In this document: piece after piece, positions 2,640-10,200 of the stretch | How the letters are laid out: each line of letters begins with the position of its first letter | How positions within the stretch are numbered: position 1 is the first letter of the stretch | Source: a virus | Lineage: Duplodnaviria; Heunggongvirae; Uroviricota; Caudoviricetes | Reading direction: 5' to 3' (one strand) | IMG/VR virus record: IMGVR_UViG_2706796243_000001 | DNA length: 64,000 nucleotides | The notes under the pieces: model-generated | What the model was told of the DNA's origin: nothing | The model's input: only the letters and a program-made list of their open reading frames with translations | Database searches by the model: none | Program-made: the position numbers and the translations under genes

Positions 2640-2668
2640 TTGACGGGAGTTAGTAAGCCGTTTACTAT
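2640..2668 (+). promoter_or_regulatory. sigma70-like early promoter TTGACG-17-TACTAT
   Basis: -35/-10 hexamers with a 17-nt spacer, upstream of the 2720 ORF. Confidence 0.5.
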
Positions 2669-2719
2669 GTATCACATCAGGGCGACACACCGACGCCCCA
2701 CACTGAAAAGGTAAAGCAA

Positions 2720-3250
2720 ATGGACACTATCGAAACTTTCAATTATTCCGAAAACGGCATTGATTTTAGCGTTGACGTTGTATGCTTTAATACAAATGAT
2801 ACATTTGGCGATGAGTGGGAATTGACCGACGATCACCAGGGCGGGGTCACTGTAAAGAATCCTAACGCGGATCGCAATAGTTATAAATATGCTATCCCGT
2901 TACAATACAGCCTGAAAGAGCGGATCGCAGACTTGATCGCCCGTGGTGATGATAACCCATCGCGCCACGCTTACGAGGCCGCACAGGACGCTTTGGAGCG
3001 CGATTTAAACGCCAGTGATTATGGTTTCAGTGTGACCGCCACCGCGAACGGGATCACCCTCCTGGATAATGAGATTATTGGTTGTAGTTTTACCTATTCA
3101 TACCAGGACGAAAGCGATTTGTTGACCGAAGCAAAAGAAGTTTACAACGGCAACGGGATCAACGGTGAAGCGCTGGACGCTGCAAAAAAGGCAGGCGCGG
3201 AGATCATCGCAAACTTTGACGGCCTGAAAAATATTTTAGAAAAAGCTTGA
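2720..3250 (+). CDS. hypothetical protein (176 aa)
   Basis: AAAGGTAAAGCAAATG RBS/start; acidic protein. Confidence 0.55.
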   Translation: MDTIETFNYSENGIDFSVDVVCFNTNDTFGDEWELTDDHQGGVTVKNPNADRNSYKYAIPLQYSLKERIADLIARGDDNPSRHAYEAAQDALERDLNASDYGFSVTATANGITLLDNEIIGCSFTYSYQDESDLLTEAKEVYNGNGINGEALDAAKKAGAEIIANFDGLKNILEKA

Positions 3251-3275
3251 TCACCAAGTCCGGATCGGTTATCTT
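3247..3275 (+). promoter_or_regulatory. PeSL-type promoter TTGATC-17(..CGGATCGGT)-TATCTT
   Basis: The conserved CGGATCGGT spacer core is shared with the promoters at 4400 and 8473. Confidence 0.5.
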
Positions 3276-3282
3276 ACTAACA

Positions 3283-3302
3283 AGCCGGGGACGCGCCCCG
3301 GC
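3283..3302 (+). repeat. PeSL stem-loop GCCGGGG-ACGC-CCCCGGC
   Basis: Perfect GC-rich inverted repeat in the 5' leader of the next ORF. Confidence 0.7.
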
Positions 3303-3322
3303 ACTAACGAGAGGTAAACAAA

Positions 3323-3562
3323 ATGGAAACATTATTGATTGACAATGACGGGTCTTTGTTGGCGGAAGTTACGGCGATTGACGCGCCTTTGTGGTGGCAA
3401 CAAAAGGGGCTAACCAAAACCCGATCCGGGTATGGGACCAAGATCCCTACACAATGGAAAGTTAATTTCCAGGGGCGTGATCGTCGGGTATACGTTGATC
3501 AATATAGTAACGCCGGACACACTTATATAATTGTGAAAGGTCAAAAAATAACTGTAAGATAA
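3323..3562 (+). CDS. hypothetical protein (79 aa)
   Basis: GAGAGGTAAACAAAATG RBS/start. Confidence 0.5.
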   Translation: METLLIDNDGSLLAEVTAIDAPLWWQQKGLTKTRSGYGTKIPTQWKVNFQGRDRRVYVDQYSNAGHTYIIVKGQKITVR

Positions 3563-3565
3563 TTG

Positions 3566-3595
3566 TTGACGCTGGCTAATGTGTGGGGTTATAAT
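3566..3595 (+). promoter_or_regulatory. sigma70-like promoter TTGACG-18-TATAAT
   Basis: Consensus hexamers upstream of the 3647 start. Confidence 0.55.
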
Positions 3596-3646
3596 CTCCA
3601 CACATTGACAAGCGAAACAAATCAACCACACAAACGAGGTTACACC

Positions 3647-3979
3647 ATGAAAAACTATTTCAATTCTCGCGCCCTTGCCCGTACTGCTGCAAAAGCCAAC
3701 GGCGGAAAAGTGATCGACAACGGCACCGCCGCGCCTGCTGGTAAACGCTGGCAGGTTATCCCCGGCGTTATGGTGGAAGCGATCCAGGACACCGCCGATC
3801 AACGTGCTGCAATGGAAAGCGCCCCGGCCCTGGTTGTTACTCTGGAAATTAAAGCGGGTTACCGTAACCGCCAGGCGGCGCGGGTCTCCTATGTACACGA
3901 CGCAAACGGCAAGCCGATCCCGGTAACCCATAAGCGATCCCAGATCGCCGCACGTTTAGCGGCGCATATGGCCCGATAA
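3647..3979 (+). CDS. hypothetical protein (110 aa; start trimmed to ATG 3647)
   Basis: ATG preceded by ACGAGGT, downstream of the promoter at 3566; the upstream part of the track ORF overlaps that promoter. Confidence 0.5.
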
Positions 3980-3987
3980 AAAATAAT

Positions 3988-4018
3988 TTGACAAGCGCCG
4001 GGAGACTGGCGCATAATA
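3988..4018 (+). promoter_or_regulatory. sigma70-like promoter TTGACA-18-CATAAT overlapping a GCGCC/GGCGC hairpin
   Basis: Hexamers plus inverted repeat GCGCCgggagactGGCGC. Confidence 0.45.
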
Positions 4019-4047
4019 CCCAGACCAAAAGAAAGCAGGTAAACGAA

Positions 4048-4398
4048 ATGGAAAACATGATCGAGATTTTCAAAAAAGCAGTAGAAAACAAAACCGCAAT
4101 TTTAAATTTTCATTCTCTTGACTTTACAGATATGTACGGTAATACATATTTTGTTTATGAGCTTTCGTTCACTACCCCGGAGATCGACACCTGGCCGACG
4201 CTGTACAAGTCGCGGGATCTGCGTTATGGTTACGGTTCCCACGCTTTACAAGTTGCAATGAAAGATCTTTCCACTATGACCGGGATAAAATCAGAATGGG
4301 GCCACCTGGATCGCTGGGCTAGTGAGAACGGCTTAAAAATCAACGTCACCCAAGAAACAGACAAGCGCAAAAAAGATTTAAAAAACTTCATCGCATAG
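4048..4398 (+). CDS. hypothetical protein (116 aa; start trimmed to ATG 4048)
   Basis: AGCAGGTAAACGAAATG RBS/start. Confidence 0.5.
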
Positions 4399-4399
4399 C

Positions 4400-4428
4400 T
4401 TGCAAACCATCGGCGGATCGGTTACATT
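4400..4428 (+). promoter_or_regulatory. PeSL-type promoter TTGCAA-17(..CGGATCGGT)-TACATT
   Basis: Same architecture as the promoters at 3247 and 8473. Confidence 0.5.
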
Positions 4429-8464: not shown

Positions 8465-8472
8465 AAAAAAGC

Positions 8473-8501
8473 TTGCAAGCCAGGCGCGGATCGGTTAATA
8501 T
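8473..8501 (+). promoter_or_regulatory. PeSL-type promoter TTGCAA-17(..CGGATCGGT)-TAATAT
   Basis: Same spacer core as the promoters at 3247 and 4400. Confidence 0.5.
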
Positions 8502-8509
8502 CTTTTTGA

Positions 8510-8531
8510 GGCCGGGGAATGGTTCCCCGGC
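8510..8531 (+). repeat. PeSL stem-loop GGCCGGGGAA-TG-GTTCCCCGGC
   Basis: Perfect inverted repeat. Confidence 0.7.
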
Positions 8532-8552
8532 AAGCCGGAAAGGTAAACAAAA

Positions 8553-8942
8553 ATGCAAAATTTCATCACTATCAGCAATAATGACAAACTGCAATCTTTG
8601 ATCGGTATCTTAAACGATGTTTCGCCGTTTATCGTTAAAAATCTTTATGCACATTTGAAAAATGTTAAGCCCGCTATCTGGTCTGCATATTGCCACGACC
8701 AGGACGAAAGCGCGGCGGCGTACATGCTCGAAATGTTAAAGGATAGTATGCAATTTTGTTTATCTCAAAGCGTTATTAATGAAGTTGATAGCCGTTTATC
8801 TTTGGCTATGGAATATCAAGCGCAAGCGGTGTATAATCAGTTAGACATTGAAGAGCAGCAAGATCAAGACTTATTCTGGGATCGTGCTGATGCTCAAAGC
8901 GCCTTTGATGACCGTTTAGCAATGTATGCTAACGAATACTAA
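8553..8942 (+). CDS. hypothetical protein (129 aa)
   Basis: GGAAAGGTAAACAAAAATG. Confidence 0.5.
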   Translation: MQNFITISNNDKLQSLIGILNDVSPFIVKNLYAHLKNVKPAIWSAYCHDQDESAAAYMLEMLKDSMQFCLSQSVINEVDSRLSLAMEYQAQAVYNQLDIEEQQDQDLFWDRADAQSAFDDRLAMYANEY

Positions 8943-8951
8943 ACAAAACAA

Positions 8952-8970
8952 GGCCGGGGACATCCCCGGC
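8952..8970 (+). repeat. PeSL stem-loop GGCCGGGG-ACAT-CCCCGGC
   Basis: Perfect inverted repeat with no T-run. Confidence 0.65.
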
Positions 8971-8992
8971 ATAATCTGAAAGGTAAATTAAA

Positions 8993-9217
8993 ATGATTAA
9001 AAATGCAACTGGTCAAACTGAATTTTTACGCAACCTTATTGCAGGTGAAAAATCTGTGTGGTATTGTAAGGATCAAAACGTCGATCCGGAAATGCGGAAA
9101 ATGACCGCCACCGTTTGCAAAGCGAAATTAGGCTTTAAGATCCGCCAATCAAAAGCCCTGATAGTTACCCCGGATTCTATCCCGCAAGCGATCATTATTG
9201 TCGAGCGCATATCATGA
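8993..9217 (+). CDS. hypothetical protein (74 aa)
   Basis: GAAAGGTAAATTAAAATG. Confidence 0.45.
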   Translation: MIKNATGQTEFLRNLIAGEKSVWYCKDQNVDPEMRKMTATVCKAKLGFKIRQSKALIVTPDSIPQAIIIVERIS

Positions 9218-9441
9218 AAAAAGTTATTTTTGACAACAAGAAAAACACCGTTACCGCTCAAAAGGTCGGGGAGTATATCGAACTAACGGATCTGTATAGT
9301 GACGCGCCGATCCGCCTGTCTCCTGAAGAGTATAAAAATAGTGAGCTTGTCAAGCATGTTGTAGCTATGGAATTTGAATTTTTCGAATACCTGGCCGATT
9401 TTGACGATGATTTTAATAGTGATGGGCTTTACGGCGCATAA
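9214..9441 (+). CDS. hypothetical acidic protein (75 aa)
   Basis: ATGA start/stop overlap with the preceding ORF. Confidence 0.45.
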   Translation: MKKVIFDNKKNTVTAQKVGEYIELTDLYSDAPIRLSPEEYKNSELVKHVVAMEFEFFEYLADFDDDFNSDGLYGA

Positions 9442-9458
9442 CCACACAACCAGGACAA

Positions 9459-9941
9459 ATGATCATGAAATATGAAATAACCCCGGAAGATATGAAAGGG
9501 CGCGGCCTGGATAGCGCACGATACACCCTTACAAAGCGTGAAAATCTGCAACTGTTTTCTATCTGCTTTATTCATCCGGACGATCCTGATTTTCAATCCG
9601 ATCCTGTAGAGTTCTGGGCTAGTGGCTGGGACACCGCCTACAGTGAATTGATGGACAATGTAACCACGTTTGAATCTTTCGGCCTGTCAAGTTTTAGCGA
9701 GACGGATCGCCCCCTGGAATGTGAGCAGGTGAGAGCGTGGATCAATCACTACAACACCCTTGATCACCTGGTCTTTATCTTCGGGGAGACAAAAGAAGAG
9801 ATGATTAGAAAAGCGCTTGACTTTAACGATCATTGTGCTTATGTGCTTCGCAAAATGTGCGAAATGGTGGACGCATTGAGGAAGGCGGAAAGTTTCGACG
9901 GCGGATCGGTTTACAGTCAATCAATGCACCGTTACCGATAA
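9459..9941 (+). CDS. hypothetical protein (160 aa)
   Basis: ORF with normal amino-acid composition. Confidence 0.5.
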   Translation: MIMKYEITPEDMKGRGLDSARYTLTKRENLQLFSICFIHPDDPDFQSDPVEFWASGWDTAYSELMDNVTTFESFGLSSFSETDRPLECEQVRAWINHYNTLDHLVFIFGETKEEMIRKALDFNDHCAYVLRKMCEMVDALRKAESFDGGSVYSQSMHRYR

Positions 9942-9974
9942 GGCCAAAATCTTTACAAAACCAGGGCTTGCTTT

Positions 9975-10172
9975 ATGGCTGTTTTGTCAAGTGTTTTTTA
10001 TGGCTGGATTGCCTGCCTTGTACTCAGTGACGCAACGGCCCAGACAGTTAACACCATGATCGACGGCTTGCAATTGGCGTTTTATTGTGTGGTGAAATAT
10101 CACAGATTTAAACGGTTCGACCGTTATGATCTACCGTTCATCATTGCCGGATCACTGGCTATCATGTTGTAA
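9975..10172 (+). CDS. hypothetical membrane protein (65 aa)
   Basis: Two hydrophobic segments; followed by a terminator. Confidence 0.4.
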   Translation: MAVLSSVFYGWIACLVLSDATAQTVNTMIDGLQLAFYCVVKYHRFKRFDRYDLPFIIAGSLAIML

Positions 10173-10176
10173 GTAA

Positions 10177-10200
10177 GGCCGGGAATTGTCCCGGCTTTTG
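10177..10200 (+). terminator. rho-independent terminator (GGCCGGGAAT-TG-TCCCGGC + TTTTG)
   Basis: Hairpin of the PeSL family plus a T-run, closing the plus-strand early block. Confidence 0.65.

Follow-up and report, generated by a model that had tools for sequence, protein, structure and literature searches.

Positions 2640-10200 of the window, which is the whole 64-kb stretch of DNA analyzed here (64,000 nucleotides of a Caudoviricetes virus, IMG/VR record IMGVR_UViG_2706796243_000001), hold 21 small open reading frames (ORFs) of 33-188 amino acids (aa), all on the plus strand, and the subject of this report is the composite cassette of promoter, GC-rich hairpin and Shine-Dalgarno (SD) sequence that recurs between them. 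The 7.6-kb stretch is 100% identical to the Salmonella phages SSE121, PVP-SE1 and GEC_vB_MG, and other Seunavirus (Vequintavirinae) members are 75-95% identical to it. Judged by these identities, the source is a PVP-SE1/SSE121-type Salmonella phage of Seunavirus, and it is rV5-like, not T4-like. The region corresponds to gp200 to gp180 of PVP-SE1, every one of which is annotated as hypothetical, and the PVP-SE1 record marks two promoters and one terminator in the same stretch. It is bordered by ORF-poor flanks (~2000-2640 and 10200-12300), and the rest of the window carries mainly minus-strand genes.

An earlier note on this DNA reported about 25 tiny ORFs and a shared leader before nearly every one of them. 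The count is 21, and a cassette lies upstream of 12, with a promoter in ten cases (10/21 ORFs) and with hairpin and box only in two. The cassette-bearing intergenic gaps measure 49-119 nt, with one exception in which the cassette forms the last ~100 nt of a 344-nt spacer, and the remaining nine ORFs are tightly packed, with gaps of 0-33 nt or overlaps. The region can be pictured as two arrays of small accessory genes, 2640-6327 and 6561-10202, which would be driven by host RNA polymerase (sigma70), with a composite cassette every one to three genes and a U-tract hairpin that would close each array. Early timing of the arrays is presumed from the host-type promoters and a T7 1.1 homologue only. 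The cassettes and the two array-end hairpins are the following.

2620..2722, plus strand: cassette c2720, an AT-rich stretch, TTGACG-17-TACTAT, a weak hairpin GGGCG..CGCCC (2680-2698) and AAAGGTAAAGCAAATG
3240..3325, plus strand: cassette c3323, a -35 TTGATC overlapping the stop codon, a 17-nt spacer with CGGATCGGT, -10 TATCTT, hairpin GCCGGGG-ACGCG-CCCCGGC (3284-3302, -16 kcal/mol) and GAGAGGTAAACAAAATG
3563..3649, plus strand: cassette c3647, TTGACG-18-TATAAT, an 11-bp inverted repeat (3578-3606) with the -10 hexamer as its loop, and SD GAGGT
3980..4050, plus strand: cassette c4048, TTGACA-18-CATAAT, hairpin GCGCCGG-GAGA-CTGGCGC (3995-4012) between -35 and -10, and CAGGTAAACGAAATG
4399..4479, plus strand: cassette c4477, GCTTGCAA, -35 TTGCAA, a 17-nt spacer with CGGATCGGT, -10 TACATT, hairpin GGCGGGA-GAGGT-TCCCGCC (4438-4456, -14 kcal/mol) and AAAGGTAAAGAAAATG
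5063..5161, plus strand: cassette c5159, TTGACT-17-TAAGAT, a 10-bp inverted repeat (5079-5104) spanning the -10, a second, small hairpin (5123-5134) and AAAGGTAAATTATCATG
6303..6327, plus strand: intrinsic-terminator-like hairpin with a T-run at the end of array 1, GCCGGGATAATTCCCGGCTTTTT
6540..6642, plus strand: cassette c6640 with the first promoter of array 2, TTGCGT-16-(TGT)TATCTT, a weak hairpin GGCA-ATGG-TGCC and AAAGGTAAATAAAATG
6925..7003, plus strand: cassette c7001, TTGACA-16-(TGC)TATGAT, an inverted repeat CCGCTTATG..CATAGGCGG across the -10, and GAGGGTAAACAAAATG
7520..7606, plus strand: cassette c7604, TTGACA-17-AATAAT, hairpin GGCCGGGA-GCGGT-TCCCGGTC (7565-7585) and SD GAGGTG
8078..8134, plus strand: cassette c8132, hairpin only and without a promoter, GGCCGGGG-ATCGC-CCCCGGTC (8090-8110) and GAAGGTAAAGATTTATG
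8465..8555, plus strand: cassette c8553, AAAAAAGCTTGCAA, -35 TTGCAA, a 17-nt spacer with CGGATCGGT, -10 TAATAT, hairpin GCCGGGGAA-TGG-TTCCCCGGC (8511-8531, -21 kcal/mol) and AAAGGTAAACAAAAATG
8943..8995, plus strand: cassette c8993, hairpin only, GCCGGGG-ACAT-CCCCGGC (8953-8970) and AAAGGTAAATTAAAATG
10178..10202, plus strand: intrinsic-terminator-like hairpin with a T-run at the end of array 2, a rho-independent terminator in the PVP-SE1 annotation

The repeated leader that had been proposed, consisting of promoter, GC hairpin and SD/start, is present, and a repeat finder groups it into families: three copies contain GCTTG(C/A)(A/T)-N-CGGATCGGTTA, in four cassettes the 3' hairpin arm and the SD box are shared, and six have AGGTAAA-N4-ATGG in common. 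A stem is found in all 12 cassettes, and all 12 end at the 3' side in an SD sequence and the downstream start codon. The ribosome-site box is AAGGTAAA-N3-6-ATG or a variant of it (GAGGTT, GAGGTG, AGGGTAAA), and the form ARGGTAAA-N3-6-ATG occurs in eight. When seven hairpin-plus-SD leaders were aligned with MAFFT they did not come into structural register, and orthologous comparisons were used instead.

Sigma70-like promoters can be recognized at the sequence level in 10 of the 12 cassettes, with a -35/-10 spacing of 16-18 nt. Four of them match the consensus at 11/12 positions, three at 9/12 and three at 8/12 (the last three counted by hand, and the level of c6640 not tallied), and the AT content of the 20 nt that precede the -35 is 65-85% in every one of the ten, compared to 55% for the window. 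Such promoters had been put forward as a trait of this region; they are found in these ten cassettes, but sites of the TTGACA type run along the coding strand of the whole window and are not special to it. The spacer motif CGGATCGGT, described as frequent, lies in three promoter spacers (c3323, c4477 and c8553), which falls short of 'often', and a fourth copy is inside an ORF. The promoters of the form AGCTTG(C/A)(A/T)-N-CGGATCGGTTA-NNNT (3247-3275, 4400-4428 and 8473-8501) match the consensus at 8/12, are well conserved and carry a GATC site in the spacer. This subfamily, which also occurs upstream of the 7001 orthologue in EC152, GAP31 and 4MG, may be a distinct promoter class.

Within the 64 kb, the hairpin and box motifs are nearly restricted to 2640-10200, and they greatly exceed chance expectation. 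Over the whole length AGGTAAANNNNATG has five matches, all of them in the region, where 0.16 are expected, and CGGATCGGT has four where 0.28 are expected. Hairpins of the type GCCGGG-N3-9-CCCGG occur at eight loci, seven of them within 3284-10195, compared to an expectation of 0.04. The relaxed box ARGGTRAA-N3-6-ATG has 8 of its 11 matches in the region, and the remaining three, two plus-strand and one minus-strand, fall outside it. Furthermore, a strong hairpin (dG <= -10.9 kcal/mol) accompanies eight of the ten promoters in the region and only 5 of the 31 promoter-like sites elsewhere in the window. A few promoter-plus-hairpin composites of this style are present outside, at 45367-45395, 47277-47304 and 36882-36910 (minus strand); one example is TTGACA-16-TATAAT, with GGGGTCTATATAATGGACCCC spanning the -10, and in another a 12-bp stem separates the -35 from the -10.

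The hairpin had been expected to follow the promoter, which is true of most cassettes and fails in four. The stem is downstream of the -10 in five to six of the cassettes (one of them weak), while an inverted repeat lies inside the promoter in the others, across the -10 in three (3647, 5159 and 7001) and between -35 and -10 in one (4048); two cassettes are promoterless. Folding gives stems of -14 to -21 kcal/mol at 3284, 4438, 7565, 8090, 8511 and 8953 and weaker ones at 2680, 6602 and 6964, and the SD box is unpaired in every folded leader. The downstream stems begin 9-14 nt past the -10, which puts them only a few nucleotides away from the predicted transcript start, and end 18-26 nt before the ATG, mostly 20-22 nt (c3323 was recounted by hand). 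By our own count, the stem-to-ATG spacing is the same in the two hairpin-only cassettes. An Rfam scan of positions 1-13000 on both strands, with E up to 1, gave no match.

Orthologous cassettes from nine relatives, extracted with the downstream ORF as an anchor, reveal that the stems covary. The stem across the -10 of c3647 occurs in three compensated versions, ATGTGTGG/CCACACAT, ATGTCTGG/CCGGACAT and ATGCCTGG/CCAGGCAT. In a seven-sequence alignment of its 11 pairs, 96% of the cells are paired, compared to 30-51% with slid partners; double compensatory changes affect 3 of the 11 pairs, and U-G and G-U wobbles are both seen on the plus strand. Similarly, the c5159 stem is compensated (GGTGGGGCTT/AAGCCCTACC versus GATAGGGCTT/AAGCCCTATC), as is that of c4477 (GGCGGGA/TCCCGCC versus GCCGGGA/TCCCGGC), and further compensatory variants are found in c7604, with an extra G-C pair, and in c8993. 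The sequence and length of the loop vary freely among orthologous cassettes. Because the wobble pairs are mismatches on the complementary strand, and because a sequence-specific operator would not covary, the selected fold is, by the pattern of substitutions, one formed by plus-sense RNA or by the plus strand as single-stranded DNA. Stems around the -10 would be present only in RNA that arrives from upstream, and every stem is placed after the stop codon of the upstream gene and before the SD of the downstream one, for which reasons the stems are read as intercistronic RNA elements rather than parts of the promoter. The covarying stems around the -10 hexamer would be a clear case of a sequence in a dual role, as promoter DNA and as structured RNA.

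The comparison with relatives also reveals how the ORFs come and go. Window positions 1-12500 were compared with the nine relatives by chained blastn, locus by locus, and 34 clusters of synteny breakpoints fall inside 2640-10200, 28 of them at ORF boundaries and six more than 20 nt inside an ORF. ORF bodies occupy 72% of the positions, and their avoidance by breakpoints has a binomial P of 9e-11. The ORFs at 3323-3562, 4048-4398 and 8553-8942 are each replaced in five relatives, with the cassettes kept. At the hairpin-only cassette c8132 (8096-8131), seven relatives have 234-462 bp extra, which in GAP31 is an additional 234-bp ORF, GAP31_062. Three relatives have an extra 144 bp at 9440-9464, and four have a block of 1.7-2.0 kb with up to eight annotated small ORFs at 9965-9974. 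This 2-kb block, which is without a counterpart in the window, contains four more cassettes of like design.

The edges of the replacements can be followed closely. In the 3323-3562 swap with SPLA5a, near-identity extends through the cassette to GAGAGGTAAACA, is lost at the ATG, and returns right after the stop codon at AATTGTTGACG, the -35 of the next promoter. For 8553-8942, the two breaks coincide with the 3' border of the hairpin and with the SD of the cassette that follows. A cassette can differ in history from its ORF, as their identities imply: in EspYZU14 c5159 is 78% identical and its ORF 94%, and in GAP31 the values are 74% versus 87% for c4477 and 88% versus 77% for c2720. In addition, c6640 is split in KE23 and NINP13076 by an inserted 75-aa ORF that separates its hairpin from its SD. 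Behind this ORF comes a c3647-type cassette as a direct copy, which in KE23 spans 100 nt (91%) at a distance of 3.4 kb from the original and in NINP13076 spans 76 nt (83%). The 100-nt direct repeat of KE23 could be a substrate for mini-circle recombination. These data show that the ORFs behave as exchangeable modules with cassettes at their borders, and that the cassettes themselves often contain the crossovers.

The 21 ORFs, with their PHROG families and PVP-SE1 names, are listed below.

2720..3250, plus strand: gp200, 176 aa, phrog_4190, function unknown
3323..3562, plus strand: gp199, 79 aa, phrog_3436; an unrelated ORF takes its place in SPLA5a, EC152, GAP31, 4MG and KE23
3647..3979, plus strand: gp198, 110 aa, phrog_8127
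4048..4398, plus strand: gp197, 116 aa, phrog_6246; replaced in EC152, GAP31, 4MG, KE22 and KE23
4477..4875, plus strand: gp196, 132 aa, phrog_4495
4877..5062, plus strand: gp195, 61 aa, phrog_19614, without a cassette of its own; deleted in SPLA5a
5159..5725, plus strand: gp194, 188 aa, phrog_4273
5728..6075, plus strand: gp193, 115 aa, GTG start, phrog_7903
6092..6295, plus strand: gp192, 67 aa, Pfam PF08200 Phage_1_1 (T7 gene 1.1 family), E=8.6e-11
6640..6924, plus strand: gp191, 94 aa, phrog_13696
7001..7102, plus strand: gp190, 33 aa, hydrophobic, annotated as a membrane protein
7105..7323, plus strand: gp189, 72 aa, phrog_12257
7334..7519, plus strand: gp188, 61 aa, phrog_8255
7604..7720, plus strand: gp187, 38 aa, membrane protein, phrog_10979
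7736..8077, plus strand: gp186, 113 aa, phrog_7366
8132..8464, plus strand: gp185, 110 aa, phrog_14450
8553..8942, plus strand: gp184, 129 aa, phrog_15485; replaced in EspYZU14, SPLA5a, NINP13076, 4MG and KE23
8993..9217, plus strand: gp183, 74 aa, phrog_5988
9214..9441, plus strand: ORF of 75 aa, phrog_15222, overlapping the preceding stop codon
9465..9941, plus strand: gp181, 158 aa, phrog_20562
9975..10172, plus strand: gp180, 65 aa, a 5'-truncated remnant of an 87-aa ORF, without an SD

The description of these ORFs as plus-strand products of 33-188 aa with almost no domains is borne out. Pfam and PHROG scans took in 20 of them, leaving out 9975-10172; Pfam matched only gp192, and PHROG placed 19, 18 of these in families of unknown function. 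PDB sequence searches with the five largest ORFs returned chance-level matches only. Two of the products, gp190 and gp187, are tiny membrane proteins. The annotated start codon of gp190 looks wrong, as the GTG chosen in PVP-SE1 (6974) falls inside the cassette and the box GAGGGTAAACAAAATG indicates the ATG at 7001, which would give a hydrophobic peptide of 33 aa. Homologues of gp199 occur in 349 phage records, mainly genomes of 84-90 kb such as Sf14 (Ounavirinae), and also in Certrevirus phages and a few Streptomyces phages, while several early ORFs of rV5 are annotated as similar to ORFs of RB49. From this spread, the region is apparently a pool of horizontally mobile small genes. Outside it, the HNH endonuclease gp204 of PVP-SE1 (ORF 949-1536, window 938-1550) is replaced by 4-23 bp in SPLA5a, GAP31, 4MG, KE22 and KE23, a presence/absence pattern that is typical in appearance of mobile homing-endonuclease insertion.

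The architecture of the cassettes, their enrichment, the covariation of the stems and the positions of the breakpoints are seen directly in the DNA, and together they are probably best explained by sigma70 arrays in which RNA stem-loop insulator/stabilizer cassettes turn the ORFs into autonomous, exchangeable modules. Each cassette would combine a sigma70-like promoter, preceded by an AT-rich stretch, with a GC-rich stem-loop and an unpaired, A-rich box (AAGGTAAA-N3-6-AUG or a variant), and host RNA polymerase would start at each of them. The stem-loop would most likely act as an insulator or stabilizer, capping the 3' end of the upstream message and attenuating read-through. Where it lies downstream of the promoter, it would also be a 5'-proximal stabilizing hairpin on the new message, placed just outside the ribosome footprint and leaving the A-rich SD box open. 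Each ORF would thus be an autonomous expression module. Co-circulating relatives have cassettes with 90-100% identity over 70-100 nt, and because of this identity and the self-contained nature of the modules, crossovers at the SD-ATG box, at the hairpin edges or at the stop/-35 junction would give viable recombinants, and with them ORF-precise swaps, losses and gains. Promoter activity, early timing, an RNA function of the hairpins and any causal role in recombination enter this explanation as predictions from sequence.

Several observations weigh against it. Hairpins inside the promoter (4/10) are absent from the transcript begun there, and therefore the role of 5' stabilizer cannot apply to them; in addition, the three weakest promoters agree with the sigma70 consensus only at 8/12. 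Breaks also occur at the cassette-free boundaries 4855-4868, 7094-7104, 7326-7333, 9435-9464 and 9964-9978, and by our own tally, made without a statistical test, they affect about 10 of the 12 cassette boundaries versus about five of the nine cassette-free ones, so that the specificity for cassette boundaries is weak. The only insertion or deletion (indel) relative to the 100% identical GEC_vB_MG is a deletion of 1957 bp between 10-nt repeats GGCTTGCTTT, with its junction at 9965-9974; the block is 8876-10832 of L002 in GEC_vB_MG, and the right end of the deletion is inside the 87-aa ORF. A cassette-mediated origin of this newest indel is ruled out, since the 10-nt microhomology lies outside any cassette and the event cuts an ORF. 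Within the genome, paralogous cassettes have at most ~15 nt of exact identity (own reading), which is short for homologous recombination. The identity of cassettes exceeds that of ORFs by a mean of only 1.2 points, with large deviations in both directions, which rules out the cassettes as the most conserved parts of the region.

These recombination data lend themselves to a survivorship explanation, in which the cassettes are ordinary regulatory signals, general homologous exchange and microhomology events happen anywhere, and recombinants that cut genes are lost. The breaks at five cassette-free boundaries, the newest deletion with one end in an ORF, the short exact matches between paralogues and a mean cassette conservation not above that of the ORFs are all in its favor. 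It accounts less well for the many crossovers inside cassettes (4430, 5111, 6608-6620, 8096, 8531 and 8952), for the cassette copy that moved along with the inserted ORF in KE23 and NINP13076, and for swaps that are exact to a few nucleotides of the common SD-ATG box, and it is considered somewhat unlikely, though it is the most serious of the alternatives. The comparison of nine relatives upholds the claim that single ORFs are swapped, deleted and inserted between conserved cassettes; that the repeats drive this shuffling remains an inference, because breaks occur at cassette-free boundaries too, and a causal role of the cassettes or a raised rate of recombination is unproven, because the newest indel lies outside any cassette.

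As to the hairpins, they could be transcription terminators as in the original model of promoter-early stem-loops (PeSLs), with the ORFs or short groups of them as moron-like closed units. They are strong and GC-rich, those that span or precede the -10 can affect no other transcripts than those from upstream, and one PeSL stem-loop of RB49/phi1 terminated as well as rrnB T1 (PMC2839356). A U-tract, however, follows none of the ten internal hairpins and is present only after the two array-end hairpins (6303-6327 and 10178-10202), and five hairpins lie downstream of their own promoter, where an efficient terminator would end the transcript that it heads. Termination as the general function is therefore judged unlikely, and the insulator/stabilizer reading is preferred for the internal stems.

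By analogy with T4, in which RegB cleaves early SD sequences and RegA represses translation, the hairpin and SD box might instead be a site for a phage-encoded post-transcriptional regulator that switches the early class off or on jointly. The regular hairpin-to-ATG spacing of 18-26 nt and the concentration of the relaxed box in the region (8/11 matches) would suit such a site. The Pfam and PHROG scans, however, revealed no candidate RNA-binding protein or nuclease among the ORFs, and the box varies (GAGGTT, GAGGTG, AGGGTAAA) and is explicable as a strong, A-rich ribosome site passed on when cassettes were duplicated, which makes the regulator quite improbable. That the inverted repeats act as DNA, whether a dimeric protein uses them as operators or they form cruciforms that are hot spots of recombination, is very improbable: four of them do overlap core promoter elements, a typical operator position, and protein binding to G-run/C-run stems has been speculated on (Arbiol 2010, PMC2839356), but the stem sequence changes while pairing is kept, which speaks against sequence-specific binding, G-T and T-G pairs on the plus strand are C-A and A-C mismatches on the other, and the loop is free to vary in sequence and length.

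The closest known system is that of the PeSLs, which have been described in the T4-like phages RB49/phi1, T4/PST and KVP40/nt-1 (Arbiol 2010, PMC2839356; Comeau 2014, PMC4122927) and, within the literature searched, were previously documented only in T4-like phages. They are defined by an AT-rich stretch, a sigma70-like early promoter, a variably placed G-run/C-run stem-loop, an SD with start codon, and a variable region of ORFs of unknown function, and recombination between neighboring cassettes leads to mini-circles (PMC2839356; PMC4122927). The PeSL-like architecture suggested by the earlier note is supported in that the published description of the cassettes and their setting is matched, from the AT-rich stretch, promoter, variably placed stem-loop and SD with ATG to the variable region of small ORFs (PMC2839356, PMC4122927). 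The stem positions seen here equal three of the five published subclasses (PMC2839356), indels and replacements between relatives end in or beside cassettes, and half cassettes exist, here in the hairpin-only form. The cassettes do not align to T4-type PeSL sequences; PeSLs differ between phage groups anyway. Further differences are that the present phage belongs to the Vequintavirinae whereas all published PeSL cases are T4-like, that the stem most often follows the -10, in contrast to RB49/phi1, where the commonest positions are over the -10 and between the boxes, that internal stems have no U-tract, which makes terminator activity doubtful, and that a conserved SD box stands at a fixed distance from the stem. 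With these caveats, the comparison supports the cassettes as a PeSL-like system in a new phage lineage.

Other phages offer partial parallels. In the early region of T7, RNase III sites are long irregular duplexes of ~20 bp, and there is no promoter before each gene. Hairpins between small early genes on host-polymerase transcripts are a likeness, as is the T7 gene 1.1 homologue found here, whereas the stems here are 7-11 bp with small loops. T7-type RNase III sites are ruled out by this stem length, which is too short for the enzyme. The SAS/ESAS elements of cluster K mycobacteriophages, which Pope et al. 2011 are said to have described, reportedly consist of an SD-containing box upstream of some starts, sometimes after an inverted repeat. 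They resemble the present cassettes in having a conserved box with an SD directly upstream of a subset of start codons, and differ in belonging to other hosts, in not being known to be tied to sigma70 promoters and in having no known link to ORF-by-ORF replacement. The morons of lambdoid phages (PMC2839356) are likewise autonomous modules with accessory genes gained and lost singly, but they are single insertions between essential genes without common flanks, whereas arrays with a repeated linker are found here. In the same subfamily, sigma70-like promoters have been reported among the short hypothetical ORFs of the Certrevirus short-ORF region (Buttimer 2020, PMC7344957), with a TGTTGAC -35 context as in c3647 and c5159; only the promoters are treated there, and stem-loops, an SD box and gene replacement go unmentioned.

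The flanks of the arrays carry repeated elements of their own. A 15-bp palindrome, TGAGAA-N3-TTCTCA, has three perfect copies (2062-2076, 6523-6537 and 10272-10286) and a fourth with one mismatch (10519-10533). The three perfect copies are non-coding: one lies 5' of array 1, one precedes the first array-2 promoter by ~25 nt, and one lies past the terminator of array 2. They may be operators at which the arrays are regulated. Behind each array terminator, a non-coding element of ~170-200 nt is repeated (6327-6500 and 10304-10480); it starts with TATGCA(G/A)AAAAGTGAATTTAA(G/A)GAGATC (28 nt, 93% identical), and the likeness extends further. The element, which has no Rfam match, could encode a short peptide (MQKSEFKEI start) or an RNA. 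In the ORF-poor stretch 10200-12300, the arms of a perfect inverted repeat of 18 nt (10638-10655 / 10839-10856) stand 183 nt apart, two copies of the short direct repeat TCGTTCGCGT(G/T)ATCGTGG are present, and relatives vary by indels of 50-110 nt; the rV5 paper describes a comparable non-coding region of 2.6 kb. As for short words, GATC occurs 373 times in the window versus 244 expected from mononucleotide composition (1.5x), and its density is about twofold in the first 12 kb (33-44 per 4 kb versus 14-26 elsewhere), while CTAG is strongly depleted (15 versus 50 expected under a second-order Markov model).

Cassettes of similar design can be recognized by inspection in other large phages. On the coding strand of the small-ORF region of rV5 (104000-122000, minus strand), TTGACA-N17-TAAACT is followed by GGCGGGAA-TGT-TTCCCGCC and an SD, and the hairpin ATGGCCTTGACTTCAGGGCCAT, whose loop contains the -35, occurs four times. 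Certrevirus CR3 repeats TTGAC-GGGGCC-loop-GGCCCC-ATAAT, and Sf14, a Felix O1-like member of the Ounavirinae, repeats TTTACA-GGGG..CCCC across the -10 together with a constant SD box AATCCTAAACTGGAGAATCTAAAATG. In the literature searched, promoters are described for these groups, while composite promoter/stem-loop cassettes or a link to gene replacement were not found there, and searches for PeSL-type elements in rV5-like or Felix O1-like phages and for transcriptomes of PVP-SE1-like phages gave nothing relevant. It may be speculated that the like-designed linkers of Vequintavirinae, Ounavirinae and T4-like phages, between which small ORFs are shared as well, form a common format for early-gene exchange among unrelated virulent enterobacterial phages, with the hairpin-to-AUG geometry read by a dedicated phage or host factor, a proposal that is at present rather doubtful.

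To conclude, the cassettes would provide a rule for annotating early promoters and true starts in therapy-relevant phages, as PVP-SE1 has only two of about ten promoters annotated here, and they are predicted to be natural insulated expression cassettes and safe insertion points for engineering. They would also mark the small ORFs that are exchangeable accessory modules and, as such, candidates for host-takeover or anti-defence functions. The occurrence of the same design in rV5-like phages, together with ORF-by-ORF replacement, suggests a general solution among large virulent enterobacterial phages.

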